This document shows, one piece after another, positions 4,922 to 44,302 of a stretch of DNA of 64,000 nucleotides. Both the position numbers and the translations under genes were made by a program. Below the pieces are notes generated by a model. That model was not told the DNA's origin. It worked only from the letters and a program-made list of their open reading frames with translations, and ran no database searches. The stretch is from Corallococcus sp. AB038B. Its GTDB lineage: Bacteria; Myxococcota; Myxococcia; Myxococcales; Myxococcaceae. Position 1 is the stretch's first letter. Each line of letters starts with the position of its first letter. The stretch covers positions 343,605-407,604 of the forward strand of contig NZ_RAWO01000002.1 in assembly GCF_003668955.1 (NCBI RefSeq), read 5' to 3'.

Positions 4922-5014
4922 GCCCCGCCTCGACGCGCCCGACCGGCCCCCGCCCCACGTCTGCGGACATGGGGTCAGTCTCCGTGGCTGAGAAAGAGGG
5001 AACCCTGCGGGGAC

Positions 5015-5225
5015 TCCCGGCTGCGGCGCACCGCATGAACCTGTCCGACAGCCGGACAGGATTGAAGGACCCAGGTCGGGGACCTCAGCGCCCGCCGAGC
5101 TGCGGAAACCTGTCCGACAGTCGGACAGGTTTTGAGGACGCAGGCGGGGGACCTCTGCTCCTGCCGAGCTGCGGAAACCTGTCCGACAGTCGGACAGGTT
5201 GGGACCGTGTCGGGCGGAAGGTGCA
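5015..5225. repeat. Tandem array of three ~69-bp repeats, each centred on a CCTGTCCGACAG(T/C)CGGACAGG palindrome, in a 382-bp gap inside the baseplate operon
   Basis: The palindromes sit at about 5040-5060, 5106-5132 and 5175-5200, with a 69-bp period. Copies 2 and 3 extend to AAACCTGTCCGACAGTCGGACAGGTTT, a perfect 12-bp stem with a 3-nt loop. The flanks are also similar (gagctgcggaaa before, and g(a/g)ggac...gggacct after). No CDS in this gap has plausible codon usage. Confidence 0.8.
5106..5138 (+). terminator. Candidate intra-operon attenuator/terminator hairpin (palindrome copy 2 followed by TTTT)
   Basis: AAACCTGTCCGACAGTCGGACAGGTTTTGAGG has a 12-bp stem, a 3-nt loop and a short T run. 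It lies between the stop of gene 2 (4921) and the start of gene 3 (5304). Confidence 0.3.
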
Positions 5226-5303
5226 CGGCATTGATGTTCGGGCGCTTGGTGCGGCGCGTTACAGCGTGGCCGCGACGCTTCCGGTCGTGGAGGGGCAGGC
5301 CCC

Positions 5304-8300
5304 ATGAGCCCTCCTTCTCAGCGGCTGATCCAGCTCCTTCCGGGGCTCTACCCGGCGCGGGACTCCACGCTCGCGGATCAGCCGCTCCTCAAGCTGCTCG
5401 CCGTGCTGGGCATGGAGCTGGATGCGTTCGCGCGCGCAGTGGATCAACTCTGGGATGATCATTTCGTGGAGCGTGCAGGCCCGCAGGCGCTGCCGTTGCT
5501 CGCGGAGTTGATGGGCGCACGGCTGATCACCGACAACCCTCGCGTGCAGCGCGGAGTGGTGGCTCGCGCGGTGGCGTGGCGACGACGGAAGGGCACGCTC
5601 GCGTCGCTGGAGGAGGTGCTCTCCGTCACCAGCCTCTGGGACGCGGAAGTGGACGAGTCCTTCCGTTCGCTGCTGGAGACCCAGGACCTCAACGACCTGC
5701 TGCCCTGGCGCGGCCGCAGCGCGGTGATGTGGGATCCCATCGGCCTCGCGGATCCGCTCACCCGCCGCTCGCCTGGCATCGAGCGTCCCCGCGACGGTGT
5801 CCCGGAGCGTGGCCTCTTCATTGGCGTCGCGCCCGGCGAGACGCTGGACCAGGCTTTGCGCCGACTGGGGAGCGCGGACGCAGGCCGTGTTGCCGCGACT
5901 CCGCGCACGCTGGACCTGCTGGGCTGGGCACGTCCGGATGTCGCCCTCATCCGCACCGCGCGCCTGACGCCCGTGGAGTTGGAGGAAGTCACCCCGGCCA
6001 CCGTGCTCACGCTGCCCAACGGCTACCGGGGCTTTCGCGTGGATCCACTCGACCGCGATGCTCCCCTGGTGTGGCTCAAGCCCCTGGAGCGCGCGGACCT
6101 CACGGGAGGCCTCACCGCTCGCCATGAGCCCGCGCCTCCGTCGCTCGTCACGGGACGCACGGCGGCGATGCTGCTCACCCCTACCTCGCTGGCCGAGGAC
6201 GCCGACGCCGCTGAACGCGCGGATGCCATCACCGTCTCCGTCGACGGCATTCCGCTGGTGGGACCGGAAGCCCTGCCACTCCTGCGCGGGCCGCTGCCCA
6301 CCGCGCCCGTGGGGCCCTCGCCCACGCTGCGCTTCGCGGACCGGGGCAGGCCTTCGCCCGGAGACACATGGCGACTGACGCTGCTGGCCGCGCGTGAGAA
6401 CTCGGACACGGTGCTCCTGTCCACCGAGCTTGTGGCGGACGCACTGAATGCCGTCACCGTCACGCCGGAAGCGAACCAGCTCCTGGGTGGCACCACGGCG
6501 GCGTTGCTCGTTGAACGGGTGAGCGGTGATCCGCGCCTGCGCGACGCGGACGGCACGTGGCGCACCCTCACCGTGGGGCTTCGCCAGGGGCCTCCTCGCA
6601 GCAACGCCATCCGCGTGGATCTGGCCGGTGCGCCGTGGGTCGCTCGCATCGAGCAACACCTCGCGGATGGCAGCCTGCGCCTTGCCCGCTTCGACGCGAG
6701 CGCTGACGGCGCGCCCTGGCAGGTGACGGAGCTCATCGGCGCGTTGCCTCCAGACGGTCCAGGCATGTCCCTGGCCATTGCTGGTGACTCACTGTTGCTG
6801 GTGGCGCCGGACGGCACGGGGAAGCTGGGCGTGTGGTCGGTGACGGGCCTGGACACCGCGACTCCGACGGGGACGCGGTTGGACACCGCGAGCCCACGGC
6901 AGCCCTCGGCGCGACTGGCTCCCAGCCTGTGCGTGCGCGGCGGCCGGCTCTTCGTCTTCGGCGGTGACCTGGGCGGCGCGCCCACTGGAGACCTCTGGTC
7001 GCTGCCGGTCACGGGCGGACCGTGGCGGCCCCATGCAGTGCGCAACCGCCAGGAGCGCAAGGCCGCGACGCTGCTGAGCACGGCGCAAGGACTGATGCTC
7101 GTGGGCGGCGAGGCCGTGACGGGAGAACTGGCCGTGCCGGTGATGCTCTGTGACCCGGCCTCCGCGAGCCCTGTCTGGCGCCCCCTGGCCCCACTGCCCA
7201 TCACCGCGAACCTGCCAGGCACGCTCGTGGCAACCACCACCGCCGACGGCGTGGAGGCGCTCGTCTGGGCGGACACGACGCGTCCTCAACGGATGACGCT
7301 GAAGGCAGGCGAGGATGCCTGGGTCGCCGGACTGCTGGAGGCCTCGGGCACGAACCCGCCGGTTCCGGGCGAAGCGCTCTACGTCGATGGGCGCGTGCTC
7401 CTCACGGATCCGGCGCCGCTGCCCGCGTCGGAGATCGTCTTCTCACTGGGCGGTCGCGGCTACCTGGCCTTCCTGCCAGAGCTGGCCCTGCTCCCGGATG
7501 AACTCCTGCGCTTCAACGTCGCCAACGACGGCGCCGCGTTCATCGAACCTCGCGAGGGCCAGCCGCTCCCGCTCGATTCCCGGCCCGGCGGTGCGTACCA
7601 CTCGAGGGATGCTTCCGTGGCCGGCGGTGCGCGGCGCTATTCGGTGCCCGGACGGCTGAGTCGCCACCCGTTCCAGCTGCGCCAGCGAAGCCTGGGCCCG
7701 TGGACGAAGCTCGCTCCGAGCATCGCCTCCGGCATCGTCGCGGTGGATCCACGCCTGGGCCGCGTCGTGATCCAGGACGACGCACCCGTGGGCCGTGTCA
7801 CCGTCTCCGCGCGGGTAGGGCGGGGCGCCTCATTGGGAGCGGGGCTGCTTCCTCCGGACCGCCGTCCGCCCGCCGCGTGGGCGGAGCCGGACTTCCCGTT
7901 CATCGATCCGCCGGACCGTCCTGGCGACCGCTCCGGCACCGGCCTTCCTGTCACCGCGTGGATCTCCCCGGAGCGCGCGGGCGGAGTGCTGGCGGCCGGA
8001 GGCCAGGAGCGGCCCATCGTCGCCACCGTCGCGGATGGACTCCAAGCCGGAGCACCTCCGGTGCTGGGCCTCATCGGTTCGCCGCGTCTTGCTCCGGAGC
8101 GTCTGTCACAGGGCCTGGACAACGGGCTGTCCCTCTTCGCCGCGGACACGGGCGCGGCGCCATGCATCGGCGCGGACGAGCACGGCCTCTCGCTGGCGCT
8201 CTACCCGGGCTTCGGAGGCAGCGCGGCCACGCGCGTGTGGCTCGCGGGCTTGTGGCTCGCGGGGCGGCTGGACCTGGTGCTCGCTCGGGGGCAGGCGGAT

Positions 8301-8945
8301 CTGCGCTGGTGCAACCTGGGCGCGCCCGGACAGGTGGGCGTGTGGATGCCGGGCGGTGGGCACCAGGACATCAGCGCGCGGCGTTCGCTGCCTCCCGCCG
8401 ACGTGGAGCTGCGCCTCTACGGCTGCATGGTGGGCGTCATCGAGCTGCCGCCCTGGGTGCACCTCATCGCCGCGGGCTGCACCTTCGACGCCGGAGACCG
8501 CGACGCCGTCGCCATCCGAGCGGCGGGCGCGACCGTGCGACTGCGGCACTGCACGGTGCTCGGGGCCACGGAAGCGGGTGTGCTGGAGGCTTCCTCCTGC
8601 GCCTTCGCGGGCGAGGTGCGCACGGACCGGCCGGACCTGGGCTGGCTGCGCTACAGCCTCTTCGCGCGCGGCGGACAGCCTCCGGTGTCGCACCAGTCGC
8701 GGGTGCACACCGTGTCCTTCCAGTCGAACCGCCAGACGGACCCGGGCTACCTCGTCCTGGGCGACAACAACGGCCCCGAAGCGCTCCACGCCTCCGAGCG
8801 CGGCGGAGTCCCCGGTGCCCACGACGAGCGCTCTGACCACGAGCGCGAACTCTCCGCGCGCACCGACGACAGCATGCCCATTGGCATCACGCCCTTCCAC
8901 GCCGACCGCAGCCAGGACGACCTCGTTCGGATGAGCCGACCATGA
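5304..8945 (+). CDS. Phage P2 gpI-like baseplate wedge protein (tail protein I family; eCIS Pvc12/Afp12-like) with a C-terminal Kelch-type beta-propeller extension
   Basis: The N-terminus LIQLLPGLYP...LLKLLAVLGMELDAFARAVDQLWDDHF...ALPLLAELMGAR...RRRKGTLASLEEVL matches the Tail_P2_I signature (LLP..., LW, LPxLA, KGT). Repeated Kelch-like blades are present (GGRLFVFGGDLGGAPTGDLWSL..., LMLVGGEAVTGEL...). The stop overlaps the next start (ATGA at 8942). Confidence 0.65.
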   Translation: MSPPSQRLIQLLPGLYPARDSTLADQPLLKLLAVLGMELDAFARAVDQLWDDHFVERAGPQALPLLAELMGARLITDNPRVQRGVVARAVAWRRRKGTLASLEEVLSVTSLWDAEVDESFRSLLETQDLNDLLPWRGRSAVMWDPIGLADPLTRRSPGIERPRDGVPERGLFIGVAPGETLDQALRRLGSADAGRVAATPRTLDLLGWARPDVALIRTARLTPVELEEVTPATVLTLPNGYRGFRVDPLDRDAPLVWLKPLERADLTGGLTARHEPAPPSLVTGRTAAMLLTPTSLAEDADAAERADAITVSVDGIPLVGPEALPLLRGPLPTAPVGPSPTLRFADRGRPSPGDTWRLTLLAARENSDTVLLSTELVADALNAVTVTPEANQLLGGTTAALLVERVSGDPRLRDADGTWRTLTVGLRQGPPRSNAIRVDLAGAPWVARIEQHLADGSLRLARFDASADGAPWQVTELIGALPPDGPGMSLAIAGDSLLLVAPDGTGKLGVWSVTGLDTATPTGTRLDTASPRQPSARLAPSLCVRGGRLFVFGGDLGGAPTGDLWSLPVTGGPWRPHAVRNRQERKAATLLSTAQGLMLVGGEAVTGELAVPVMLCDPASASPVWRPLAPLPITANLPGTLVATTTADGVEALVWADTTRPQRMTLKAGEDAWVAGLLEASGTNPPVPGEALYVDGRVLLTDPAPLPASEIVFSLGGRGYLAFLPELALLPDELLRFNVANDGAAFIEPREGQPLPLDSRPGGAYHSRDASVAGGARRYSVPGRLSRHPFQLRQRSLGPWTKLAPSIASGIVAVDPRLGRVVIQDDAPVGRVTVSARVGRGASLGAGLLPPDRRPPAAWAEPDFPFIDPPDRPGDRSGTGLPVTAWISPERAGGVLAAGGQERPIVATVADGLQAGAPPVLGLIGSPRLAPERLSQGLDNGLSLFAADTGAAPCIGADEHGLSLALYPGFGGSAATRVWLAGLWLAGRLDLVLARGQADLRWCNLGAPGQVGVWMPGGGHQDISARRSLPPADVELRLYGCMVGVIELPPWVHLIAAGCTFDAGDRDAVAIRAAGATVRLRHCTVLGATEAGVLEASSCAFAGEVRTDRPDLGWLRYSLFARGGQPPVSHQSRVHTVSFQSNRQTDPGYLVLGDNNGPEALHASERGGVPGAHDERSDHERELSARTDDSMPIGITPFHADRSQDDLVRMSRP

Positions 8946-27451: not shown

Positions 27452-30400
27452 TCATGGAGGAGGCCAGCGGGGCGGCAAGAGATCGATGACGCGGCGGCCG
27501 AAGCTCTCCGCGTCCGTTTCAATGGGCTGCCGGAAGTACCTTGGGTCTCCCGGCCCGTAGTAGTGGCCGCCGGAGCCAGGCAGGTTGCGCCACCACCGGC
27601 GCGAGAACGGATGCGACTGTCGGCCAATCGAATACTGGTAGGCCTGATACGCCTGATAGTAGTGCCGCGACTCGTGGACGGCGGTGCCCACCGCGTCGCC
27701 CACGTCCAGGTTCTCGTTGATGACGATGACGCCACGCCGGCTTACGGGCGCGAGCCGGCCCTGGTGCGTGACGTTGAAGTCCCATTCCATCCATCCGTAG
27801 TCCCCAGCCGGCAGGTTCTGGAATTCGACCCGTGGACGACGCGACTGGGGGACGCCCATGGCATCCATTGCCGCACCCACTGACTTCTTGAGGGCCTGCT
27901 GCCGGTCCCGGAGCGACAGCGTGCCGAACGTCGAGGGGTCCAGCTCCGGGATGTCCTCCAGCCCCGCTTGCAGGTCGCGCATCTGCGCCAGCTCGAAGGG
28001 CTTGAACCGGCGGCTGCTCCAGCTGCGGGAGACGGTGACGTCGAAGTCCCCCCAGCCCAGCACGTTGCCGGTGGGACCTATCGTGCGAATGCGCTTCGCG
28101 GTCTCGAACGGTTCGATGATCCGGGCGATCTCTCCCGGCTTCACGTTCGGGTCCAGGCTGTGGATGAGCCCCTTCAGCTGTTTGGGATCGATGTTGTACT
28201 GGGCCAGCAGGCCTGGCTTGCGCTTCGTGCCCTTGAGCGCCGACTCCACCTTCTTCAGCACCTTCAGCGTGGCCCCGACGCGGCCCTTCTTCAGCTCATC
28301 CCTGAAGACAACCATCAGGGCATCGAGCTCCGCGCGGGGGGCCGAACCGTGGGGCATGACCTCCCGGACCAGCGACATCTTGCGCCACGCGTCCGCGATG
28401 CGTTCGACGCGGTCGACGAGCTCCCAGCCCGGCGGAGGCATGGGGGTAATGGGCCCCACGCGCAGCTCGATGGAGATCCGCCACTCGTCGATGGCCTTGG
28501 TCAGCGCCTCCAGGTGCGCCGGCCCCAGGCCTCTCGCCCGGGTCCAGGCCAGGTCCGACAGCTGCGCTTGCAGGTCGTCCAGGTTCTTGCGGAGGTTCTC
28601 CCCCACCGCCGTGAAGTCCTTGAGCCTGGGGGCGTGCTTGCCGCCCTTCACCTCGACCAGGTGGAGCTTCGCGCTCGTCGGATCCGCGGCGTGGTCGAAC
28701 TCGACGATGATTTCATCGATGCCGCTGCCTTGCTCCGCGCCCCTGGGCTTGAAGTCCAGCCGCCGGAATCGCTCCGTCGGCCCCATCCGTTCGCCGAGCA
28801 GCGCCTCCGTGAACGCCCGGGACTTCTGCTTCTCCACCACCTCGCCCGCCTCGGTGGTGCCGTAGCCGCGCGGCTGCCAGCGGTTGCGGGAGCGCTTGGA
28901 CAGGATGAGCTCGATGTATTCCTTCTCACCGCTGGCGCGAGTCACCTCCACCAGCTTGTAGTAACGGAGCTCCTTGGGGCGGTACATGACCTCCTGCCAC
29001 GCGGGGCCGATCTGCGCCACCGTGTCCGCCGGATCCAGCTCCAGCGTGGTGCGCCCACGCTGGAGGTCGTCGAACACCTGGCGCGGTGCGCTCTTGATGT
29101 ACGGATCATCCAGCTCCGGCCCCCCCTTCGAGAACGGCCCCACCTCCGGGTGGTCGCCGTGGAGCACGGTGTTGGGCCACACGTTGTTGGGCCTGCCTGG
29201 CTCCCGGATGACGGGCTTGGTGTCCGTCACGGTGAGCACCGGGGCCGTCTTCTTCCCACCTCCGCGCGTCTTGACCGCCGGCGGCTTCGTCTCCGGAACG
29301 ACCACCTCCGGTGGCTTCGCCGTGGGAAGCTCCATCTCCAGCTGTTTTGGCGTCGGAACCTCCGGCGCTGACGGCTTCGCCGGGGTGAATTCCAGCTCCA
29401 GCTGTCTGGCCCCCTCCGCCTCCGGTGAAGGGACGGGCGGTTCCTTCTTGCTGAACAGCCGTGGAGGCTCATTCAGGTACTGCGGCTTCGAGCGCACGCC
29501 CTGGCCGAACTCCGCCATGTCGAGGGGTGTGAACGCATCCACCTCCTTCATCCGCTGGCGCAGGTTCTCCAGCGTCTTCTTTCCCTGCCGGATGCGGCGG
29601 GTCGCCTCCTCCGGGTCCATGGACACGCCGCGCTTGCCCTCCAGCGACGTGAGCAGCGACTCCTGCGCGTCGATCTCCAGGAGCAGCTTCTTGCGATAGA
29701 GCTCGAACTGCTTCTCGATGGGCAGCTTGTCCCAGTGCCGCAGCGCCCGTTCGTCCAGGGCCTTGATCAGGTCGCGCGTCGCCTTGTCGTGGCGCTGGAG
29801 CAGGTGCAGGCCCTCCTCGCCCAGGTCGGACAGGTCCGCGCCCGCCTTGACGATGATGGTGGGCTTGCCGCGCCGGAACATCGCGACGGCCTGGGCGGAC
29901 TTGCTGCCGGTGAGGGCTTCGAAGTCCGCCTCGGAGATCAGCTCGATGGGCGTGTTCGCGAACGCCTTTCGCTGCGCGGGCGGGATGTGCTCCAGCAGCT
30001 CCTTGCGCATCGCGCGCTGGAGCTGCTGCCGGTCGAAGTCGCCGGACATCTGCTTGAGCAGGCCCTCGTCGAACTCGCGCAGGAACTCCTTCATGTTCCC
30101 GGCGGGGTTCTCCGCCTTCCACTTCTTGAAGAGGGTCAGCCGCTCCTTGGGCGTGCCCCGGAAGTGGAGCAGGTCCTGGGTGCGCGGCGGGACATGGGGC
30201 TTGGAGATGCCGCCCAGCGCGCCGAAGGCCCCGGCCATCACCGCGCCCGGCGCCGCCTGCATCACGGTGCCGGCCAGCACGTTGAAGAGCGCGTTGCCGC
30301 CCTTGTAGTTCTCGTCGTTGAGGACGTTGCCCAGGAACGCGGAGGGCGCGGACTGCACCAGGCCTTCGGCGCCCTGGGCCAGGCCGTGCGCCGCCACGCG

Positions 30401-33400
30401 GGCCATCACCCCGCCTTCCTCCGCCATGCGCGCCAGGAACCCCAGCTTGAGCAGCTTCGTGCCCATGCCAGCGGTGGCCGCGGCGGTGAGGGCGTCCACG
30501 GCGCCCACGCCCGCGTCGACGGCCGCCTCCTCCCAACCGTAGGCGCTGCCCTTCATGGCGGCCTTGGTCAGCATCGTCACCGCGGCCGTCGCCACCGCCA
30601 TGCCCACCAGCACCGGCGTGCTGGCCATGAACGCGCCGAACGCGGCCCAGAACCCCGCGCCCGCGGGCGGAGCGAAGATGCTGACGATGACGCCGATGAT
30701 GATCACCACCGCCATCACCACCGCGGTGAGGACCATCACCAGCCGGTCGGTGATGAAGTCCACCTGCTCGCGGTGCATCTGCACCGACTCGTCGGCGTAA
30801 TCACCCTGGCGCTGCACGCGATCGGACTTCTTCTCCCAGTCGTCCTGCCACTGGCGCAGCCCGTCGGCGGTGTAGTTCTTGTCCCCGGGCTTGGGGCGCA
30901 TCCGCTCGTGCAGCTCCAGCGCGCTCACCTCGGCGTCGAGCGCGGACGCCTGGTCCAGCACCAGCTGGTACTCCGACGACGCCAGGCTGTTGGTGGAGCG
31001 CGCCTCGAAGTGCACCCGGCGCCAGGCCCGGTCCGCCTTCTCGCGGGGCGTGACGGGCTCGCCGTAGTCCACCATGTCCAGGACGTCGAACTCATCGCGT
31101 CCGCCCAGCTCCTCGTCGATGCGCGCGCGGAAGCGCTCGAAGGGCGTGCGCGTGTCGCCAGGGTCGGCGGGGTGGTCCTTGGCCCACTCCTCGGCCATGG
31201 CCTGGATCTCCGCCTTCGTCTTCCCGGCGAAGACCTCCTTGAGCGCGTCCTCGTCCGTGCCCACGCCCTGCACGGCGTACTGAACGATTTCCGCGTCGGT
31301 GAGGTAGCCCTTCTCCAAGAGCGACGCGACGGCGTCCCGGTCCGCGCCGGACGTGTCCATCAGGACGGCCTGCTCGAAGCTCGCCTGGAGGTGCGTGCCC
31401 TCCACGTAGGCGCTGTCGTACTCGGCCGCCAGCGCCTTCATGTTCGCCATGGCGTCGGCCTGGGCCTGGGCCTTCGCCTTGCCGTCCACCTCCTTGCGTT
31501 CCTTCGCGATGCGGGCCTGGACCTTCTCCGGGCTCCACTTGTCCAGGAACTCCACTTCACTGATGCGGCCCTTGCGGCGGTCCTCCTCCGTGAGCGGGCC
31601 TTCGCTGGCGGGCTTGACCTTCGCCTCGTCCAGCGTGCGCTCGATGTCCATTCGCTCCTGGACGTCCAGGTAGCCGTCACGGCGCGCGTCGGCGATCTGC
31701 CGCTTGCCCTGCGCGGACATGGCGTCGCGGATGACCTTGTCGTCCGCGTAGAAGACGCTGGTGTGCTCGATGCGGATGCGCGCGGCATCCACCTGGAGTC
31801 CCTTGTCGTCGCGCAGGCCCTCGATGAGCTTGAGGTCCTCGCCCTTCATCTCGTCGTGGAACGCGGCGCTGAGCGCGCTCTCACCCGTGGTGCGCTCGGT
31901 CCACTCCGGGCCGTATTGCTTCTCATACGACGCGTCGATGGCCTGGTTGCGCTTGAGCAGCTCCGCGCGGAACGTCTTGGTGTCCCAGCCGTACTGCTGC
32001 GCGTCCGCCTCCGTCTCCTTGCGGATGCGGTCGTAGACGCCCTCCATGGCCTTGCGGTCGGTGCCCAGGCCGAAGAACCACCCGCCGCGCATGGCGCGGT
32101 CCATCTCGATGGCGCGCGCGTCCTCGGTGCGGCCCTCCACCAGGGCGTGCATCTCGTCCACGTCGTGTGTCTTGAGCGCGCCGCTGCGCAGCTCGTCGTC
32201 CATCTGGACGACCAGGTCCTTGCCGTACTTCTGCTGGTAGGCCTTCTTGATGGCTTCGATCTGCTCCGGCGTCTTGCCGCGAAGCAGGGTGAGGATGGCG
32301 GCCTCGTCCGTGCCCCAGCCCAAGCCGAAGAAGGTGCCCTCCATGGCGTCGTTCAGCTCGACAGCGGCGGCCTTGGAGGCGTTGCCGGAGAGCAGCGCTT
32401 CCGCCTTGTCCCAGTCGTGCGTGGTGGTGCTGAAGAAGTCGTCCAGCTCGCTCTTGAGCCGCTCGCGCAGGTTCTCGTTGTGCTCCTGCTGGTAGAGGAG
32501 CTCGATGTAGTGGCCCTGGAGCGGGTTGAGGTTGGCGAGCGCGTCGAAGATCTTCTTCTCGTCCGTGCCCCACTGGTCCACGCCCTCCCAGACCTTGAGG
32601 GAGATGTTGCGAGCGCGGTTGCTGAAGAGGGGCTCCTGCTGGTCGACGACGATCTTGAGCCGCTCCAGGTCTGTGGACGCGAGCAGCTCCTTCTCCAGGG
32701 CCTCCATGAGCGGCTTGCGGCGCTGGCCGATGATGCGCACGGCCAGTCCCTCCGCGAGCGCCTGCACCGCGTCCTTGCCACCCTTGCCGTAGTAGGAGAG
32801 CAGGATGGCCTTCTGCTCCTCGCTGAGGGCGTTGTTCCCCTTGATGGTCTCCGCGTCCAGCTCCTCGCCCTGGCGCAGGCGCACCTCCGCGAGGAACAGC
32901 ATGTTCTGGTCCAGCGACGTCTTGTTCTCCGCCGCGCGAGCGGTCTCCCACGCGCGGCTCTCGTCGTGGGCGGCCGCCAGCCAGTCGATGATCCACCCGA
33001 GCAGCCGGTCCCAGAAGCCGCGCTCGTAGCCGATCTGCTTCGCGTGCCAATCGCGGATGACCTCCCGGGCCTCCTTGCCCGCGTCGCGCAGCTCCTGCTG
33101 ATAGCGCTCCACGCTCTGGTCGATGTCGCGCTTCGCCTTCGAGACGACGGCGCCAATCTCCTTGCGGCGGTCGTCCAACCACTTCTTGGTGGGGCGGTAC
33201 GCCTCCGTGGCGGTCTTGAGCTTCACCGGATCATCGCCGGCGTCCTTCTTGAGCTCCCACTCGTCCTGGAGCGCGGCGAGCTCGTAGGCGTGCATCTGGT
33301 CGCTCGCGGCCTTCGCGAAGGCTTCCTTGAAGCGCTTGCCGTTCTGGTCGTACCGGACGACCCAGTTGCTCACCTTGGTGTCCACGGCCGCGATGAGCGC

Positions 33401-35524
33401 GTCGCGTTTGCGCCGGGCCTCGGTCAGGTCGACGCCGCCCTTGATGGCGGCGGCCTTCGCCTCGGACTGCGCGTCGAGCGAGGCGCGCATGCGCGACAGG
33501 GAATCAGCGAACGACTTGCCGCCCTCCTCCAGGCTCTTCTTCGCGTCCTCGTGCGCCTTGCTGAGCGTGCCGGTGGTGGCGGCGTGCGAGTCCACCAGTT
33601 GCTTGCGGCGGGCCTCCACCTTCGCGTCCAGGTCCTCCTTCTTGATCTGCGCGGCGTCCGCGACGCGCTGGAGCTCCGCGGCGAAGATGGGACGTTCCGC
33701 GGTGATGAGAGCAACGCCCCAGGACGCATCCAGACCGCCCGGGACATAGGCTTCGCGGGCCTTCTGGACGGAGGCGTCCGCGTACTTGTCCGGAGCGACG
33801 AGCAGCCGCGCCAGCACGTCGCCAATGTCCACGCGAGCGAAGTCGGGGACGTTGATGGGCGCGGGGGCGGCCTGTTCGAGGACGGTGATGCCCTTCGCGG
33901 GTTCCTTGGGCTGGACCTTCGCCTTCTTCTGCTTGTCTGCCTCGGCGGTGATCTTCTTCTGGAGGCGCGTCCAGTCCTTGAGCTTCTCCGGGTCGGTGGG
34001 CTTGGGGCCGCCGGGCTTGTAGACGAGGTCGCCGAGCGGGCCCTTGATGAGCATGTGCCCGCCGTCGTCGCGCACGAGCTGCGCGCCAATCTCCGGCACA
34101 TGGCCCAGCGGGCTCTTCCGCAGGTCGGGGAGTTTGGCCTCCTTGACGTCCAGCTTCCGTTCGCACTTCGCATCCACCAGCGAGGAGGCCTTGCCGGTGG
34201 GATCGTCCGGGATGGCCGGAAGGTCCTTCGGCTGCTTCGCCGGGGTGATGGCCTTCTTGCCTTCGTCCTCCAGTTGCTTGAGGCGCGCGGCGCGGACCGC
34301 GTTGGGGTCCACGGCGGCCTGGGTGATCTTGAACGTGTAGCGGGGCGCGGGAGGAAGCTGGGGCTCCGGGACCTGCGCCGTGGTGCTGGAGATGCGGCCC
34401 TTCCATGCGGTGACCGGATCCGCGTCCGCGCCCACCGCTGGCGCAGCGGGGATGGGCCCCGCCGTGACAGGTGCCGCCTGCGCAGGAGGCGGCGCGGGAA
34501 GGCTGGCAGGGGGCTCCACCGCCGCGACGGCACCCGTCGGATCCGGAGCGGTTTCGAGACCGTGCTTGATGCCTTGGGCGCCCTGCGCATGGGCCTCGGC
34601 CAGCTGCTTCTGCCACTCCATCGCGGCCGGAGGCACGGGCACCCTGGGGCCCGTGTCGACCGTGGCCTCCGTCTGGATGGAAGGAGGCTCCTGGGGTCCA
34701 GCGCCAGGGGAGGCCTGACGGACGACGATGTGGACATCGCTCTGGCTCGACAGCGCGGACACCAGCGTGTCGATGCGCGCGGCGTCGTCCATGCCGCCGG
34801 GAGCGGTCCCCGTGGGAATGGAAGCGGGCGCGGGAGCTTGCTCATGCGTTGCCAGCTCGCCGCCCGCGCTGGGCGCATCGACGGTGGTGGCTGTAATGGA
34901 TTCGGGCGCGGGAGAAGTGCTGCCCCCGAGTCCCGCCGCTTCCGACTCCGCGGTGCTCGTGGTGGGTTCGAGGTCTGAAGCACGGGCCTCGGCGAGCCGC
35001 GCGGCGGTGTCTCCGAGTTGCTCAGCGGAGCCCAGAGGCAGGACGGCCATGCGTGCCGCATCACGCCGTCGAGCATCCTCCTCTTGCTGCTCGAGGGTCG
35101 CGGGCTGGGACGCGCCAGCCGCCTGCGCGAGCCCGGTGTTCGGTTGTGGCGCGAGCCCATGGATGCCCAGCTCCGCCTCGACGGCGCCGGGCGTGGAGAG
35201 CAGCGCGACCTCCGGCGGGTGGACCGGGTACGGCTCGAAAAGATGCGAGCGCGGACCGCCCAGTGTCCGCCACGCCGGGTCGCTCCACCGGCGCTCCAGA
35301 TCGCGAGCGGCATCACGAAGCACGGGCCCGTGAAGGGCAGGGGCCGAGCCTTTAAGTGACGCGAGCCGCGCCGCCAGCTCACGCGCGGGATTGGACGAGG
35401 AAGGGCCCCGGGGAACGACACCCGGAGCACGAGGAAGGGCCGCGGAGGACGAGGGAGTGCGCCCGGAGTTCTTCCGGAGCATGGCCTTGGCGGAGGCCTT
35501 CGGGCCCTGGTCACGGATGCGCAC
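27452..35524 (-). CDS. Giant (2690 aa) multidomain protein: disordered Pro/Ala-rich N-terminus, coiled coils, at least four annexin repeats, a hydrophobic transmembrane block, and a C-terminal HExxH (HESRH) zincin-like motif; candidate CIS cargo/toxin
   Basis: Annexin-type endonexin motifs GWGTDEKKIFDALANL, GLGWGTDEAAILTLLRGKTPEQIEAIKKAYQQKYGKDL, GLGTDRKAMEGVYDRIRKE and GVGTDEDALKEVFAGKTKAEIQAMAEEW lie at aa ~980-1460. A TM-like block ITDRLVMVLTAVVMAVVIIIGVIVSIF...GMAVATAAVTMLT lies at aa ~1590-1660. AVHESRHYYQ sits about 74 aa from the C-terminus. Strong GC3 coding bias along the whole ORF. Confidence 0.7.
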   Translation of the reverse strand: MRIRDQGPKASAKAMLRKNSGRTPSSSAALPRAPGVVPRGPSSSNPARELAARLASLKGSAPALHGPVLRDAARDLERRWSDPAWRTLGGPRSHLFEPYPVHPPEVALLSTPGAVEAELGIHGLAPQPNTGLAQAAGASQPATLEQQEEDARRRDAARMAVLPLGSAEQLGDTAARLAEARASDLEPTTSTAESEAAGLGGSTSPAPESITATTVDAPSAGGELATHEQAPAPASIPTGTAPGGMDDAARIDTLVSALSSQSDVHIVVRQASPGAGPQEPPSIQTEATVDTGPRVPVPPAAMEWQKQLAEAHAQGAQGIKHGLETAPDPTGAVAAVEPPASLPAPPPAQAAPVTAGPIPAAPAVGADADPVTAWKGRISSTTAQVPEPQLPPAPRYTFKITQAAVDPNAVRAARLKQLEDEGKKAITPAKQPKDLPAIPDDPTGKASSLVDAKCERKLDVKEAKLPDLRKSPLGHVPEIGAQLVRDDGGHMLIKGPLGDLVYKPGGPKPTDPEKLKDWTRLQKKITAEADKQKKAKVQPKEPAKGITVLEQAAPAPINVPDFARVDIGDVLARLLVAPDKYADASVQKAREAYVPGGLDASWGVALITAERPIFAAELQRVADAAQIKKEDLDAKVEARRKQLVDSHAATTGTLSKAHEDAKKSLEEGGKSFADSLSRMRASLDAQSEAKAAAIKGGVDLTEARRKRDALIAAVDTKVSNWVVRYDQNGKRFKEAFAKAASDQMHAYELAALQDEWELKKDAGDDPVKLKTATEAYRPTKKWLDDRRKEIGAVVSKAKRDIDQSVERYQQELRDAGKEAREVIRDWHAKQIGYERGFWDRLLGWIIDWLAAAHDESRAWETARAAENKTSLDQNMLFLAEVRLRQGEELDAETIKGNNALSEEQKAILLSYYGKGGKDAVQALAEGLAVRIIGQRRKPLMEALEKELLASTDLERLKIVVDQQEPLFSNRARNISLKVWEGVDQWGTDEKKIFDALANLNPLQGHYIELLYQQEHNENLRERLKSELDDFFSTTTHDWDKAEALLSGNASKAAAVELNDAMEGTFFGLGWGTDEAAILTLLRGKTPEQIEAIKKAYQQKYGKDLVVQMDDELRSGALKTHDVDEMHALVEGRTEDARAIEMDRAMRGGWFFGLGTDRKAMEGVYDRIRKETEADAQQYGWDTKTFRAELLKRNQAIDASYEKQYGPEWTERTTGESALSAAFHDEMKGEDLKLIEGLRDDKGLQVDAARIRIEHTSVFYADDKVIRDAMSAQGKRQIADARRDGYLDVQERMDIERTLDEAKVKPASEGPLTEEDRRKGRISEVEFLDKWSPEKVQARIAKERKEVDGKAKAQAQADAMANMKALAAEYDSAYVEGTHLQASFEQAVLMDTSGADRDAVASLLEKGYLTDAEIVQYAVQGVGTDEDALKEVFAGKTKAEIQAMAEEWAKDHPADPGDTRTPFERFRARIDEELGGRDEFDVLDMVDYGEPVTPREKADRAWRRVHFEARSTNSLASSEYQLVLDQASALDAEVSALELHERMRPKPGDKNYTADGLRQWQDDWEKKSDRVQRQGDYADESVQMHREQVDFITDRLVMVLTAVVMAVVIIIGVIVSIFAPPAGAGFWAAFGAFMASTPVLVGMAVATAAVTMLTKAAMKGSAYGWEEAAVDAGVGAVDALTAAATAGMGTKLLKLGFLARMAEEGGVMARVAAHGLAQGAEGLVQSAPSAFLGNVLNDENYKGGNALFNVLAGTVMQAAPGAVMAGAFGALGGISKPHVPPRTQDLLHFRGTPKERLTLFKKWKAENPAGNMKEFLREFDEGLLKQMSGDFDRQQLQRAMRKELLEHIPPAQRKAFANTPIELISEADFEALTGSKSAQAVAMFRRGKPTIIVKAGADLSDLGEEGLHLLQRHDKATRDLIKALDERALRHWDKLPIEKQFELYRKKLLLEIDAQESLLTSLEGKRGVSMDPEEATRRIRQGKKTLENLRQRMKEVDAFTPLDMAEFGQGVRSKPQYLNEPPRLFSKKEPPVPSPEAEGARQLELEFTPAKPSAPEVPTPKQLEMELPTAKPPEVVVPETKPPAVKTRGGGKKTAPVLTVTDTKPVIREPGRPNNVWPNTVLHGDHPEVGPFSKGGPELDDPYIKSAPRQVFDDLQRGRTTLELDPADTVAQIGPAWQEVMYRPKELRYYKLVEVTRASGEKEYIELILSKRSRNRWQPRGYGTTEAGEVVEKQKSRAFTEALLGERMGPTERFRRLDFKPRGAEQGSGIDEIIVEFDHAADPTSAKLHLVEVKGGKHAPRLKDFTAVGENLRKNLDDLQAQLSDLAWTRARGLGPAHLEALTKAIDEWRISIELRVGPITPMPPPGWELVDRVERIADAWRKMSLVREVMPHGSAPRAELDALMVVFRDELKKGRVGATLKVLKKVESALKGTKRKPGLLAQYNIDPKQLKGLIHSLDPNVKPGEIARIIEPFETAKRIRTIGPTGNVLGWGDFDVTVSRSWSSRRFKPFELAQMRDLQAGLEDIPELDPSTFGTLSLRDRQQALKKSVGAAMDAMGVPQSRRPRVEFQNLPAGDYGWMEWDFNVTHQGRLAPVSRRGVIVINENLDVGDAVGTAVHESRHYYQAYQAYQYSIGRQSHPFSRRWWRNLPGSGGHYYGPGDPRYFRQPIETDAESFGRRVIDLLPPRWPPP

Positions 35525-35555
35525 GGTCCCCCCCGCACCATCAGCGCGAGGGACG

Positions 35556-37997
35556 CTAGGTCATCTCCACATCGAGGACCAGCGAGGCCCGGATGGGATG
35601 TCCATGACTGCTCCAGAAGCGATGGAGCAGGTCAAAGTCATAACTCTCCTGGACGCGAGGTGTGAGCTTGCGGCCATCCAGCTCGTGCGGGAGTCCACGG
35701 GAGAGCAACCCATGCAACACGCCAAGCAGCTCATGTTCCTCCTCCGCGCGGTGTGACCACGCGGAGACGATGAGCCCCAACCGCAGCGCACCGTTCTGGG
35801 TGACAGCCAGCCGGTAGAGCGCGAGCGACACAGCGGGCCGCTTCCCCGCGAGCGCCTCCCGGGTGGGGGAGCCGTGGAGGATGTGGACCTCCTTGAGGAA
35901 GTGTTGTCTGAGCTGCGAATCCAGTGCCTCCTGGAACACTTCCGCCACGCGACGAAGGCGTGTGCCCGCGTCCGAGGGAGCCTCCGCCTCCGGGCGCCGC
36001 GAGAGCCGGCCCAGCTCATACAGCTCCAGCGCGACGGCGCGCTCCAGGTGCTCCTGGGCCAGCGGAGCACCCGCCTGTTCGGCGAGGAAGATGGCCTTGA
36101 GCGCGGCGTTGCGGATGTCGCCGCCCGCCAGCCGGTGCCGCTGCGCCAGTCCCGCCAGGTCGAGAGCCCCCGCGCGAGGCACACCCTCCGGAAGCATCAG
36201 CTCCCAGATGCGGCGGCGCTCGTCGACCTCGGGGAAGGGGAACTCGATGCGCGCGTGGAAGCGCCGCAGGAAGGCTTCATCGATGGCCGTCTGCAGGTTG
36301 GTGGCGAGGATGATCAGCCCGTCGTGACGTTCGATGCGCTGGAGGAGGAAGCCGACCTCCAGGTTGGCGAAGCGGTCATTGGCGTTGCTGACCTCCGTGC
36401 GCGCGGAGAACAGCGAGTCCGCCTCGTCGAAGAACAGCACGGCGCCGGAGCGCTCGCCGTGGGACAGCACCTCGTCGATGTTCTTCTCCGTCTCGCCCAC
36501 GTACTTGCTGACGAGCCGGGACAGGTCGATGACATACAGCGGCCGGCCCACCGCATGGGCGATGACCTCCGCGGCCAAGGTCTTGCCAGTGCCGGAGCGT
36601 CCGGAGAAGAGCGCCACCGGCCCCGTGTGCATCCGGAAGCGACGTGACAGGCCACGCTCTTCGGCGACGCGGTCGCGCTGGGCCACGTAGAACAGCAGTC
36701 GCTCCAAGGCCGCGCGAGTGGTGTCACGCACCACGAGGTCCGCGAAGGTCCGCGACGTCTCCAGCCGGTAGCCATGGCGCAAAGGCACCTGGACAAGCCG
36801 CGAGGCCGCGGCACGAAGCGCATCCGCGTCACCGCCCGGAGCCGAGTCGAACACGCGGCGGATCTCCTGAACCCCGCCCCGAAAGCCAGACGCCAGCCGT
36901 CCCGCGTCCACTTCCGTCAATGACAATCCCCGGACCCGGGCCTCCTCCAGCCACAGGGTCCGCCGCTGGACGAAGCCTGGAGCGGGTGCCTCATGGTGCG
37001 GCACGGCGAAGGGCTGCGCGGAGTCCGCGAGCACCAGGGCCCGCCCGCCAAACCGTTGGCACAATCCAGACAGCGTCTCCGTGACGGAGAGTGCCAGCCC
37101 CCGCTCACCCCCGGACATGTCCACGGCCAGCATCGCGCCGCGCACGGAGGCCAGACGCCACAGGGCCCGGGCCATGGAAACCGGCTCTGGAGCCCCTGCC
37201 CACCGAGCGACAACCAGCGGTACACCGGCTTCGTCAGCGAGGCTCATCGCCACGCCCAGCCGCTCTCCTTCGCCATGCACGACAGCGAACGTCCCGAGTG
37301 ACGAAGACGGCAGCACCTCCGGTCCATGCCATTCCAGCGAGAGCTCGCCCAGCACGGAGGGCCTGGGCAGTTCCAGCAGGGCCTCGCGGACCTCCGGAGC
37401 CAGGTCCACGGGCCGGAGCATGGGAGGAAAAGCGCCAGCGCCCGTCTGCAAAAATCCACCGCCCACCAGGAGTCCGCTGTCGGTCAGGGACGCCAGCAAG
37501 CGCTGCGCGCGAGCAGGCGTGCGTCCCAGGACGGTGAGCAGCAACCGCTCCACGTTCCATCCCTGCGCGGTCTCGTCCTGGAGCACGGCGAACAGGCGCG
37601 AGTACCGGGGCTCCAGCCACGTCGCGAGCAGGAGCAGCAGCGCCTCCTCCTCCACGGTGTCGACGCGAAGCGAAGCCCGCAGCCGCGCGAAGGGAAGGGG
37701 AGGCGAAGTCCCCAGGAGCGGCGTCTCCGCGAGCGCCGAGCTGAAGGCGAGCTCGGCGGTGGAAGGGCGCACGGTGGTGCGCACGGCATCCCAGCCATTC
37801 TCCTGTTCCCCCCGGAGCTTCGAAGCGCGGGCCTCCTCCAGGTCACACACCTGGACGAGCAGCGCATCCAGACGCCTCAGCGTCTCCCCCCACAACGGAT
37901 CCATGGGCGCCTCCAGCCGGCCAGCATACGGAGGGCGGGTGGATCCGGCCATGGACGGGCCTGGAGGGCAGGTTCCACTGCGTTGGTATTCCGCCAA
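35556..37997 (-). CDS. AAA+ ATPase with large N-terminal region (eCIS Afp15/Pvc15-like ATPase by context)
   Basis: Walker A LFSGRSGTGKTLAAEVIA, Walker B VLFFDEADSLF and sensor-1 GLIILATNL sit in the C-terminal half of the 813-aa protein. It is immediately upstream (31-bp gap) of the giant effector-like gene. Alternative starts exist at about 37952 and 37904. Confidence 0.7.
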   Translation of the reverse strand: MAEYQRSGTCPPGPSMAGSTRPPYAGRLEAPMDPLWGETLRRLDALLVQVCDLEEARASKLRGEQENGWDAVRTTVRPSTAELAFSSALAETPLLGTSPPLPFARLRASLRVDTVEEEALLLLLATWLEPRYSRLFAVLQDETAQGWNVERLLLTVLGRTPARAQRLLASLTDSGLLVGGGFLQTGAGAFPPMLRPVDLAPEVREALLELPRPSVLGELSLEWHGPEVLPSSSLGTFAVVHGEGERLGVAMSLADEAGVPLVVARWAGAPEPVSMARALWRLASVRGAMLAVDMSGGERGLALSVTETLSGLCQRFGGRALVLADSAQPFAVPHHEAPAPGFVQRRTLWLEEARVRGLSLTEVDAGRLASGFRGGVQEIRRVFDSAPGGDADALRAAASRLVQVPLRHGYRLETSRTFADLVVRDTTRAALERLLFYVAQRDRVAEERGLSRRFRMHTGPVALFSGRSGTGKTLAAEVIAHAVGRPLYVIDLSRLVSKYVGETEKNIDEVLSHGERSGAVLFFDEADSLFSARTEVSNANDRFANLEVGFLLQRIERHDGLIILATNLQTAIDEAFLRRFHARIEFPFPEVDERRRIWELMLPEGVPRAGALDLAGLAQRHRLAGGDIRNAALKAIFLAEQAGAPLAQEHLERAVALELYELGRLSRRPEAEAPSDAGTRLRRVAEVFQEALDSQLRQHFLKEVHILHGSPTREALAGKRPAVSLALYRLAVTQNGALRLGLIVSAWSHRAEEEHELLGVLHGLLSRGLPHELDGRKLTPRVQESYDFDLLHRFWSSHGHPIRASLVLDVEMT

Positions 37998-38050: not shown

Positions 38051-38551
38051 ATGACTCAGAGTGGTACTGAAGGGGTGTCGGCCCTGGACTTCCGGGAGGC
38101 GATGTCCCGGTGGGCGAGCGGGGTGGCGGTGGTCTCCGTCCGTGATGCGGACGGGATCGCGGCGACGACGGTCAGCTCCTTCAGTTCCCTCTCCCTGACG
38201 CCTCCGCTGATTGCCCTGGCGCTGCAGCAGTCCTCCCGCACGCTCAAGCGCGTGGAGGCCGCCCGCCGCTTCAGTGTGAGCGTGCTGTCCACCATCCAAC
38301 GCGACGTGTCGGTCCGCTGCGCGAAGGGGGAGGCCGAAGGCCGGATGTTCGACGAAGGAGCCTTCGTGCAGGACAGCCTGGTGGGTCTGGCGTGCGCTCT
38401 GTTGGATGTGCACCGTTACGGCGATCACCTGTTGCTGGTGGGCCGCGTGGAGCGCATCCAGCGGGGAGTGGACGAAGAACCGTTGCTCTACTGGAACCGG
38501 GGGTATCGCGCGCTGACGGCGCACCCGGAGCCAGGGCCCGCCCCGAAGTAG
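38051..38551 (+). CDS. Flavin reductase family protein (FMN-binding, HpaC-like)
   Basis: WASGVAVVSVRDADGIAATTVSSFSSLSLTPPLIALAL is the typical flavin-reductase domain signature. Confidence 0.75.
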   Translation: MTQSGTEGVSALDFREAMSRWASGVAVVSVRDADGIAATTVSSFSSLSLTPPLIALALQQSSRTLKRVEAARRFSVSVLSTIQRDVSVRCAKGEAEGRMFDEGAFVQDSLVGLACALLDVHRYGDHLLLVGRVERIQRGVDEEPLLYWNRGYRALTAHPEPGPAPK

Positions 38552-38597
38552 CGAACGAGTAGCTGAAACCTCACTGAACCCGGAAAGGACGCACCCG

Positions 38598-39182
<585 letters not shown>

Positions 39183-39200
39183 TGTGAAGTGAAGTGACGG

Positions 39201-39244
39201 GAACCGCGCGGCCCGGCTCGGCACGGTCCGGAGCGGCGCGGTTC
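39201..39244. terminator. Candidate bidirectional terminator hairpin between sodB (+) and the convergent small lipoprotein gene (-)
   Basis: Inverted repeat GAACCGCGC ... GCGCGGTTC (9-bp GC-rich stem) at a convergent junction. No T tract. Confidence 0.3.
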
Positions 39245-39254
39245 TCGGATGCGT

Positions 39255-39464
39255 TCAGTGCCGCTCGCACCAGTCAATGCGGCACTTGTCGAACTGGACG
39301 TAGCAGGCCTCTTCCTGCGCCGGAGTCGTCGCGTTGCGCATGCACCGGGCGCGCATGTCGATACAGTACGGACAGGGACCTGCCGCCTCGGCCTGGGTGT
39401 TGGTGAATCCCGCCGCGAATCCCAGACATGCCGCTACCGCCGCCAGCGCCATCTTGAGCTTCAT
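39255..39464 (-). CDS. Small secreted Cys-rich lipoprotein (69 aa)
   Basis: Signal peptide MKLKMALAAVAAC has a lipobox-like VAAC. The mature part has six Cys. GGAGG lies 7 nt upstream of the ATG. Confidence 0.5.
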   Translation of the reverse strand: MKLKMALAAVAACLGFAAGFTNTQAEAAGPCPYCIDMRARCMRNATTPAQEEACYVQFDKCRIDWCERH

Positions 39465-39509
39465 CACGACCTCCGGTTGGGTTTGGACCGCAATGGAAGT
39501 CTAGCACCG

Positions 39510-42242: not shown

Positions 42243-42272
42243 GGTGGGACGCGACTCTAGGATTGTTCGCGC

Positions 42273-43235: not shown

Positions 43236-43312
43236 GGGGCTTTCCTCGGTGAGGCCCGGAAGGGGCCTTTCGACGCCCTGACACCGGCCGGGAAATCCCT
43301 TGCAGCGAAAGT

Positions 43313-44302
43313 TCAGCCCCCCGGACCGAGCAGCCGCGTCAGGCTGAGGTCCACCTGGCTCACGACCAGCGCCGCGATGCTGTCCACCGAGGACGCGCCC
43401 ACCCCCAGGCGTTCGCAGAGCCGCCGCGTCGTGGCCTCCGCCACCTGCTCCCGCGCGCGGCTGAGCCACCGCGACACCGTGGACATGTGGACGCGGTAGA
43501 GCGCCGCGATGGCGTCCAGCGACAGCGACTCCACGTGGTACAGGCGCATCAGCGTGCGGTCCCGGTCGGACAGTTCACCCAGCGCCGTGCGCACGGCCTC
43601 CGTGAAGGCCTCGCGGTACCGCGAGCGCAGGTGTTCGAGCTCTGGCCCCAGCTGCTCGCCGAACGCGGACTCGACGGAGTCCTGCGCGGCGGAGTCGGCC
43701 CGGGCTTCGGAGCGCTTGATGTTGAGCGCGATGCGCAGCGCCGCCACCCGCACCCAGCCGCCCAGCGCGCCGCCACCGGTGAACTCCGAAATCTTCGGCT
43801 CACCGCCAGCAGCCGCCGTGAACAGCTTCTCCCGGAGCACCTGCCGAACCTCCGCGACGAACGCGGGCGAGCGGTCCACGCCGGACACGAACGCGCCGAC
43901 ATCACGGAGGTAGCCATCCTCGAAGAACTGGAGCGCGGCGCGGTCATGCCGCAGGCACCCGAAGGCCAGGTACAGCTCCGAGAAGGCAGGCGAGGCCCCT
44001 TCGAGCGCCTCCAGGAGCGCCGTCTGGGACGTCAGCCGCTGCGCGACGAACGCCACGAAGGCGAGCGGCTCCAGCTCCACCCCGGGCCAGCGCGACCGGG
44101 CGCGGTCGAGCGACGCACGGAGCAGATCCTCCAGACGCGAGGGCTCCGGAAGCGGAGCGGGCGCGCGGCCAGGAGCCGCGAGAAAGGCGGAGGCCAAAGG
44201 AGTGGGCGCGGGGGACACGCCCGGGACGCTACCACCCCCACCGGGCGGACGAAGGCCACCGTCCGCCCGAGCCCACGTTGCTCGTGACCCCCGGAGTTCC
44301 AC
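43313..44302 (-). CDS. RNA polymerase sigma-70 family factor (ECF-like, extended N-terminus)
   Basis: Region 4 [43 protein letters not shown]. Region 2-like: [19 protein letters not shown]. The true start may be downstream of 44302. Confidence 0.6.

Follow-up and report, generated by a model that had tools for sequence, protein, structure and literature searches.

Among described cargoes of contractile injection systems (CIS), the closest to the protein considered here are Afp18 and the PVC payloads (of the Serratia Afp and Photorhabdus PVC systems), Tme of Streptomyces davawensis and the Sle1 effectors of actinobacterial CIS. The ATPase Pvc15 is described, in the passages on it in PMC11495950, as an N-terminal region (N) followed by a degenerate first (D1) and an active second (D2) ATPase domain. 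Tme is a tape-measure-related effector of 2247 residues with a C-terminal endonuclease that localises to the membrane (PMC11126660). Sle1 proteins begin with a coiled coil, contain a transmembrane helical hairpin and end in a functional domain that varies between members, and in Micromonospora eburnea an Sle1 member and the gene immediately downstream form a toxin-immunity pair (PMC13277306). In two surveys, annexin PF00191 is listed as enriched in loci of extracellular CIS (eCIS) and DUF4157 as an eCIS toxin marker (Geller et al. 2021, PMC8213781), and fusions of bacterial annexins with toxin domains and with membrane segments are catalogued, C. coralloides proteins included (PMC3894181). Here we analyse 64,000 nucleotides of the soil myxobacterium Corallococcus sp. 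AB038B (contig NZ_RAWO01000002.1, positions 343,605 to 407,604; "the window", from whose first letter all positions are counted unless a locus is named), in which a CIS ATPase gene is followed by a gene for a protein of 2690 residues, "the giant", and by three partner genes. We think it probable that this set is the payload module of an extracellular-type CIS, in which the giant would be the injected toxin and its neighbours would include the antidotes.

The resemblance to the Afp and PVC loci begins with the ATPase, which has the same layout of N, degenerate D1 and active D2, a DEAD-type Walker B motif, a KY pore loop and paired arginine fingers (passages of PMC11495950). Its gene likewise stands with CIS structural genes, and the next gene downstream is that of a very large payload with a presumably disordered N-terminus. 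In contrast to Afp and PVC, the Corallococcus ATPase carries, fused at its C-terminus, a domain like the one at the N-terminus of the tail terminator Pvc16 (Pvc16_N), the payload carries annexin repeats, a transmembrane hairpin and three conserved partner genes, and the module is convergent to the structural genes. Tme and the giant, which we compare by description and not by sequence, are both CIS-associated giants, largely disordered, that contain coiled-coil segments and transmembrane helices and, in the C-terminal part, a nuclease or nuclease-like domain; moreover, the N-terminal DUF4157 that defines tme-like genes is present in one relative of the giant (locus L041). The Corallococcus giant itself, however, has no N-terminal DUF4157 (no Pfam match), its nuclease-like domain is PD-(D/E)xK-like and not EndA-like, it has annexin repeats and a second, HExxH domain, and it follows an ATPase convergent to the baseplate operon, whereas tme lies directly upstream of the baseplate genes. 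The coiled coil, transmembrane hairpin and variable C-terminus of Sle1 are also features of the giant, but Sle1 is far smaller, is paired with the small DUF4157 protein Sle2 upstream of the sheath gene, and has neither annexin repeats, nor the ExxHxxQ domain described below, nor an adjacent ATPase. A conserved delivery part, interchangeable C-terminal toxin domains and downstream cognate genes are shared with eCIS-associated and polymorphic toxins in general. The available passages of PMC8213781 and PMC3894181 do not describe the giant family, its ExxHxxQ domain, the fixed pairing with a CIS ATPase, or the partners of 256 and 504 residues, and a literature search found no paper on the family, the pairing, the partner genes or the terminator-like domain of the ATPase. 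The features of the module are as follows, with the evidence for each in brackets.

35556..37997, minus strand: CIS ATPase of the AAA+ class, Afp15/Pvc15 type (Pfam, AlphaFold model, Foldseek, invariant motifs)
35559..35969, minus strand: ATPase residues ~677-813, domain like the N-terminal domain of Pvc16/Afp16, PF14065, formerly DUF4255 (profile match below the cutoff alone; homologs match)
27452..35524, minus strand: the giant, 2690 residues, candidate CIS-delivered effector (codon pattern, orthologs and distant homologs)
33845..35524, minus strand: giant residues 1-560, Pro/Ala-rich, low complexity, presumed disordered (composition)
31025..33847, minus strand: giant residues 560-1500, charged helical or coiled-coil region (560-970) and annexin region (970-1500) (Pfam, solved structures, motifs)
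30155..30757, minus strand: giant residues 1590-1790, transmembrane hairpin of two adjacent hydrophobic helices, then Gly/Ala-rich amphipathic helices (sequence)
29405..30157, minus strand: giant residues 1790-2040, family-defining domain after the membrane segment (alignments, 41 genome loci, 308 representatives)
28325..29137, minus strand: giant residues 2130-2400, PD-(D/E)xK-like (restriction-endonuclease-like) domain (D in GIDEII, E-x-K in LVEVKG)
27455..28207, minus strand: giant residues 2440-2690, C-terminal zincin-like domain with HESRHYYQ (sub-threshold Pfam match, model)
26915..27439, minus strand: 174-residue protein, CxxC...CxxC zinc ribbon at its N-terminus (12 bp from the stop codon of the giant)
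26129..26899, minus strand: 256-residue helical protein (co-occurrence with the nuclease-like domain)
24615..26129, minus strand: 504-residue protein, HEAT-like in its N-terminal and FGE-sulfatase-like in its C-terminal domain (Pfam FGE-sulfatase, E 6.8e-8; weak HEAT_2)

The open reading frames of the ATPase and the giant are real genes. They encode 813 and 2690 residues and are separated by 31 bp, exactly as proposed by an earlier model that had seen the letters of the window (the sequence-only reading). The start codons are TTG and GTG, and a G-rich Shine-Dalgarno-like run immediately precedes the GTG of the giant. The G+C fraction at third codon positions (GC3) is 0.82 for the ATPase and 0.91 for the giant, and both frames fit the coding pattern of a 70% G+C genome; the window itself is ~70% G+C and its proteins have their best relatives in Corallococcus. 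A 1747-residue open reading frame on the opposite strand was set aside as a shadow frame. Since the NCBI orthologs of the ATPase are 782 residues long, its start is likely Met32 (nucleotide 37904); the 813-residue frame proposed earlier is present, but the true protein is probably 782 residues long. The minus-strand operon runs on past the giant through the genes for the 174-, 256- and 504-residue proteins, with gaps of 12 bp and 15 bp and finally a 1-bp overlap.

By sequence and predicted fold, the ATPase is a CIS ATPase of the Afp15/Pvc15 type. Pfam recognises a single AAA domain (PF00004, E 1e-24) and the winged-helix domain PF22977 in the large N-terminal region. The AlphaFold model (pLDDT 87.5) consists of a helical/winged-helix N-terminal part (residues 1-180), a Rossmann-like D1 (185-370), a canonical D2 (380-630) and an extra alpha/beta domain; D1 is degenerate, with no P-loop lysine and no GK[ST] motif in its sequence. 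Foldseek aligned 500-560 columns over D1-D2 of the tandem-AAA proteins p97/Cdc48/Rix7 (E 2e-18). Across 62 homologs the catalytic set of D2 is invariant or nearly so (G438, G440, K441, T442, K467, Y468, D493, E494, N536, R547, R548) and makes up a Walker A motif (GxxGxGKT), a DEAD-type Walker B, the Asn of sensor 1, a pair of arginine fingers and a KY pore loop, the same list of residues as is given for Pvc15. Matches on plasmids include the ATPase of PVC/Afp-type loci, with scores of ~200-230 bits against the PVC-type plasmid ATPases as compared with ~100 bits against p97/VCP, although identity to the PVC-type ATPases is only ~37% and confined to D2. Scores against the NCBIfam models of IteA, FtsH, CbbX and the proteasomal ATPases fell far under the curated cutoffs, and these assignments were rejected. 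The earlier proposal of an Afp15/Pvc15-type ATPase with a large N-terminal region agrees with PF22977, the N/D1/D2 layout and the catalytic residues, and its stated alternative, an AAA family not associated with CIS (CbbX/FtsH-like), was not borne out by the Pvc15 architecture, the motifs or the CIS-linked homologs.

What sets this ATPase apart is its C-terminal domain. A Pfam scan of the whole protein gives a weak match to Pvc16_N there. On its own, this segment matches Pvc16_N with 25.9 bits (E 9.7e-6; cutoff 27), but 23 of the 62 ATPase homologs match PF14065 individually (best E 7.9e-7), and on a PVC-like plasmid locus of Serratia a tblastn match extends from the ATPase into the annotated Pvc16 gene. 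We read the protein as a loading ATPase fused to a tail-terminator-like domain, a fusion that suggests where loading takes place. The domain is common to ~50 ATPase homologs of ~780 residues, while ATPases of ~640-730 residues are without it. The passages on Pvc15 and on eCIS cited above make no mention of such a fusion, at which no dedicated search was aimed.

All the features that the sequence-only reading had ascribed to the giant were found: a Pro/Ala-rich N-terminus, a charged helical region, four annexin repeats, a hydrophobic block (~1590-1790) and an HESRH motif. The first 560 residues, with 13% Pro and 17% Ala, are the least conserved part of the protein, at 61-85% identity between species as against 84-95% in neighbouring regions. 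Within them, a block at residues ~80-115 (DPAWR...GPRSHLF.P.P.HPPEV.LLS.PG) is conserved among the Corallococcus orthologs and is a candidate docking or loading motif. The relatives of the giant likewise have Pro/Ala-rich N-termini; no N-terminal motif shared across phyla was found among the giants. The domain annotation that had been suggested confirmed annexin PF00191 at E 1.9e-20 (73 bits, cutoff 25) in three stretches, and at E 1.2e-22 for the segment alone. Residues ~980-1140 and 1396-1483 match solved annexin structures, and four G-T-D endonexin motifs mark four repeats.

Beyond the annexins and the membrane segment lies the domain that defines the family, with the motif order [E/D/Q]E[G/A]xHxxQ (invariant), LDE..L..W, ExDxQ and PxYLxxPxRLFSK; in the model the ExxHxxQ motif sits on a helix that follows a three-stranded sheet. 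In some family members (L022, L037 and P0023) the domain is present in two or three copies, and in L022 and L037 its motif reads DEGPHL[VM]Q. An interpretation of the ExxHxxQ domain as a degenerate DUF4157 found no support when aligned by hhalign to the two DUF4157 sequences of L041 (probability 0.3). A Pro-rich linker leads to the nuclease-like domain, which has an invariant E...D...ExK triad, and a helical region separates the latter from the C-terminal HExxH domain. The HESRH motif of this last domain occupies residues 2617-2621, and in the model a sheet is followed by the helix that bears it, a topology compatible with a zincin. The domain scores 26.1 bits (E 6e-6) against the putative metallopeptidase family DUF6782, just below the cutoff of 27, and a Foldseek search of the model against the PDB returned nothing significant (best E 0.9).

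Support for the giant as a toxin comes from its C-terminus and the genes behind it. Across relatives, the region C-terminal of the family domain varies from 365 to 1321 residues and consists of mutually unrelated sequences, while the hairpin and the domain following it are conserved. Among relatives with the annexin or membrane parts in common, the C-terminus is Ntox4, Gln_deamidase_2 or PT-HINT. A Pfam scan of nine distant tails gave no known toxin domain, with one weak DUF4123 match in L022. The HExxH domain occurs only in Corallococcus, P0020 and L046, and homologs of the 174-residue protein are encoded solely where that domain occurs (Corallococcus and L046). This protein also varies in step with the giant's C-terminus, at 46-49% identity against 85-95% for the flanks. 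Outside Corallococcus, a homolog of the 256-residue protein is found in 7 of the 8 loci with the nuclease-like domain and in none of the 14 without it (one-sided Fisher p ~5e-5, uncorrected for phylogeny). Between Corallococcus species the last 560 residues of the giant and the 174- and 256-residue genes fall together to 45-53% identity, both flanks remaining at 85-95%. Such co-occurrence of domains and partner genes is what one would expect if toxin domains were accompanied by cognate immunity proteins. Variable C-termini and downstream genes that track specific domains together point to a polymorphic toxin with immunity genes, as befits the candidate effector module proposed earlier, and we regard the 174- and 256-residue proteins as candidate immunity partners of the HExxH and nuclease-like domains, respectively. 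Homologs of the HEAT-like N-terminal domain of the 504-residue protein are present in almost all giant loci, either 3' of the giant or between ATPase and giant; this protein is a near-universal partner of the module and possibly an adaptor or chaperone. In one subgroup (L026, L032, L034, L035, L042-L044) the HEAT-like gene lies between the ATPase and the giant and not downstream of it.

A hydrophobic hairpin occupies the equivalent position in every family member examined, and the giant has no signal peptide in its sequence. Both observations bear on a different role, in which the giant is not cargo but a membrane-embedded accessory of the machine in the producing cell, an anchor or firing platform that, in a role comparable to that of CisA of Streptomyces coelicolor, would hold a cytoplasmic CIS at the inner membrane, the annexins lying on the membrane and the ATPase serving assembly or recycling. 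The hairpin would then leave both large parts of the protein on the cytoplasmic side, the post-membrane domain and the HEAT-like partner are conserved as structural parts would be, and cytoplasmic CIS that depend on membrane proteins exist in Streptomyces (PMC12237407). Variable C-termini with recognised toxin domains, however, would not be expected of an anchor, nor would partner genes that track specific domains; the giant gene occupies the payload position after the ATPase, the locus encodes a 2535-residue beta-helix fibre-like protein that suggests binding of an outside target, and Tme and Sle1 are examples of CIS cargo that bears transmembrane helices (PMC11126660, PMC13277306). We think an anchor unlikely.

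The giant has orthologs in ~20 Corallococcus genomes at 66-94% identity (94% to a C. exiguus protein), and distant homologs of 2200-3150 residues exist. In a search of 1.84 billion representative proteins the ExxHxxQ domain family comprised 308 cluster representatives from many phyla; nearly all full-length members are 2000-3300 residues long and carry the domain at about residues 1500-2300. One actinomycete relative of ~1490 residues (L041, 6995-11455) has a canonical N-terminal DUF4157 (HELAHVAQQ), which links the family to the DUF4157-marked eCIS toxins. Near it, on the opposite, reverse strand (6652-8010), lies a second DUF4157 protein.

A genome scan with the alignment of the family domain gave 41 loci, again from many phyla. 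Wherever the DNA of a giant locus reaches far enough in the 5' direction, an ATPase of this family is encoded ahead of the giant on the same strand, a pairing that spans Myxococcota, Acidobacteriota, Alpha-, Beta- and Gammaproteobacteria, Anaerolineae and Actinomycetes. ATPase homologs are found in or beside CIS clusters in L001, L004, L047, L049 and L053. In L047 the ATPase is directly beside the sheath, gp19 tube and gp25 genes, and no giant is present; in L049 and L053 it closes an operon containing Tail_P2_I. The L053 operon is a single unit of Tail_P2_I, fibre-like genes, ATPase, a 2474-residue annexin giant and two more genes, and L004 is similar, the ATPase-giant pair terminating a co-directional CIS operon. 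L017-20, L031 and L040 share the genes that immediately precede the ATPase in L049 and L053. In Micromonospora pattaloongensis (L001) the giant is co-directional with the structural genes and the ATPase alone is inverted, so the convergent layout of the window is best seen as a local rearrangement. The convergent transcription reported earlier is thus true of the window but, with the pair co-directional in L004 and L053, this comparison of loci indicates that it is specific to this lineage and not a property of the module.

These contexts also speak to whether ATPase, giant and partners might form a self-contained polymorphic-toxin system, independent of the CIS, in which the ATPase would, for example, help extract the toxin from the membrane or export it, and adjacency to CIS genes would reflect shared mobile islands. 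L046 has a full module (ATPase, annexin giant and genes for a 254-residue, a 138-residue and an FGE protein) preceded by 10 kb of DNA with housekeeping genes, no CIS genes stand near the ATPase of the Sorangium locus L050, and the module of the window is a separate, convergent transcription unit. Yet L046 is covered on only one side of the module, and it is on the opposite side that the window carries its CIS. Furthermore, the ATPase family is that of the CIS, one copy (L047) standing beside sheath, tube and gp25 with no giant, the ATPase bears a tail-terminator-like domain, the pair sits inside a CIS operon in L004 and L053, and the same synteny joins a myxobacterium and Micromonospora, all of which makes independence from the CIS very unlikely. 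The sequence-only reading had named occurrence of the giant away from CIS loci as evidence against its proposal. No such separation from the machinery was observed, the giant coming with its ATPase wherever the DNA suffices and with a CIS operon in L004 and L053, but L046 and L050 have no CIS genes in their available flanks. A further annexin giant, of 2303 residues, is encoded in L003 (10001-17805) ahead of an Imm49 immunity gene; the neighbourhood contains a type III secretion cluster but no CIS ATPase. Only the annexin region of this protein is shared with the Corallococcus giant, and annexin-toxin fusions are accordingly not restricted to CIS.

On the plus strand, the CIS structural genes announced by the sequence-only reading are indeed present. 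They form an operon that meets the minus-strand module at a 208-bp spacer, the named members being identified by Pfam and NCBIfam matches.

57..24406, plus strand: CIS structural operon, convergent to the ATPase/giant module
57..2402, plus strand: Baseplate_J
2399..4921, plus strand: TIGR02243 baseplate protein
5304..8945, plus strand: Tail_P2_I with kelch
8942..16549, plus strand: beta-helix fibre of 2535 residues, DUF6519
17128..18315, plus strand: gp5/VgrG spike
18483..20093, 20090..22252, 22249..23460, 23457..24188 and 24185..24406, plus strand: five unknown genes (ATGA start/stop overlaps)

The gene order is unusual in that the gp5/VgrG spike comes after the baseplate genes and the 2535-residue fibre (8942-18315, plus strand) and is followed by the five unknown genes. 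The same order is found in M. pattaloongensis, with 59% identity for VgrG and 36-38% for the 536- and 720-residue proteins. The last three genes (22249-24406, plus strand), which a GC3 filter had missed, encode 403 (Pro-rich), 243 and 73 residues and close the structural operon, each joined to the next by an ATGA overlap; a homolog of the 243-residue protein is encoded right before the giant in Micromonospora (L001, 9519-10004). Beyond the other end of the module (38051-44302) the neighbours are of housekeeping type, namely a flavin reductase, an Fe/Mn superoxide dismutase, a 910-residue Ser/Thr kinase with WD40/PD40 repeats and an NHL/SGL beta-propeller protein, and no module-specific regulator was recognised among these flanking genes.

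The content of this operon raises the question of whether the giant could be the tape-measure protein of this CIS, equipped with extra domains, and not a dedicated toxin. Phage tape-measure proteins, like the giant, typically have a coiled coil, transmembrane helices and enzymatic domains at the C-terminus, and neither profile library (Pfam, NCBIfam) identified a tape-measure protein at this locus, nor did NCBIfam among the genes preceding the ATPase. At ~1.5 Å per residue, however, 2690 residues would imply a tube of ~400 nm. Nor are the annexin and disordered regions helical rulers, the NCBIfam CIS models do not match the giant, and the canonical tape-measure gene precedes the ATPase, a slot filled by conserved proteins of 586-650 residues in related loci and by the 536- and 720-residue proteins here. 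Although Tme and Sle1 are described as tape-measure relatives (PMC11126660, PMC13277306), we find it hard to credit that the giant is the ruler of this machine.

From the domain content, gene linkage, phylogenetic spread, variable C-termini and partner-gene co-occurrence laid out above, we infer how tube loading, membrane insertion, toxicity, immunity and the choice of target might come about in the payload module we favour. The ATPase would act as a Pvc15-like hexameric unfoldase. As the tube assembles, it would recognise the giant, probably by the long and presumably disordered N-terminus as a putative packing signal, and feed it into the lumen, and the fused Pvc16_N-like domain may dock the ATPase at the distal end of the tube or sheath. 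Upon contraction the giant would be expelled; its annexin repeats would bind acidic phospholipids in a Ca2+-dependent manner, and the transmembrane hairpin and Gly/Ala-rich helices would insert in the target membrane. The PD-(D/E)xK-like and HExxH domains at the C-terminus would be the toxic activities. In the producer, the 256-residue protein would neutralise the nuclease-like domain and the 174-residue protein the HExxH domain, with the HEAT/FGE protein possibly serving as chaperone or adaptor for a membrane-prone cargo.

Several observations weigh against this assignment. The sheath and tube genes lie outside the window, L046 and L050 lack CIS genes in their available flanks, and L003 places an annexin giant beside a type III secretion system with Imm49 and no ATPase. 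The nuclease-like domain, the post-membrane domain and the HEAT-like partner are conserved and not variable, which would also fit a component of the machine, and a hairpin with large cytoplasmic domains on either side would suit an anchor in the producer's own membrane as well. Finally, the DUF6782 match of the C-terminal domain stays below its cutoff, and the Fisher test on the 256-residue partner takes no account of phylogeny.

A more elaborate version, possible but rather doubtful in our view, is that the giant is a self-translocating effector related to tape-measure proteins. Its annexins would dock in a Ca2+-dependent manner, the hairpin, Gly/Ala-rich helices and ExxHxxQ domain would form a conduit for its own nuclease and protease domains, and the ATPase-terminator fusion would be a loading port at the distal end of the tube. 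By analogy with Streptomyces, the system may also fire inside Corallococcus cells, contributing to programmed lysis and DNA release in myxobacterial development.

CIS payloads are known from few model systems, and the loading of very large or membrane-prone cargo is poorly understood. Because the giant belongs to a widespread family (~300 clusters, many phyla) with a fixed set of partners, comprising the ATPase, the giant, the HEAT-like protein and the domain-tracking genes, it could allow loading, chaperoning and immunity to be dissected together. Its annexin repeats represent a rare bacterial use of a eukaryote-type membrane binder, and its modular C-terminus could serve engineered protein delivery. 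In a predatory myxobacterium, the system may contribute to the killing of prey or to developmental lysis.

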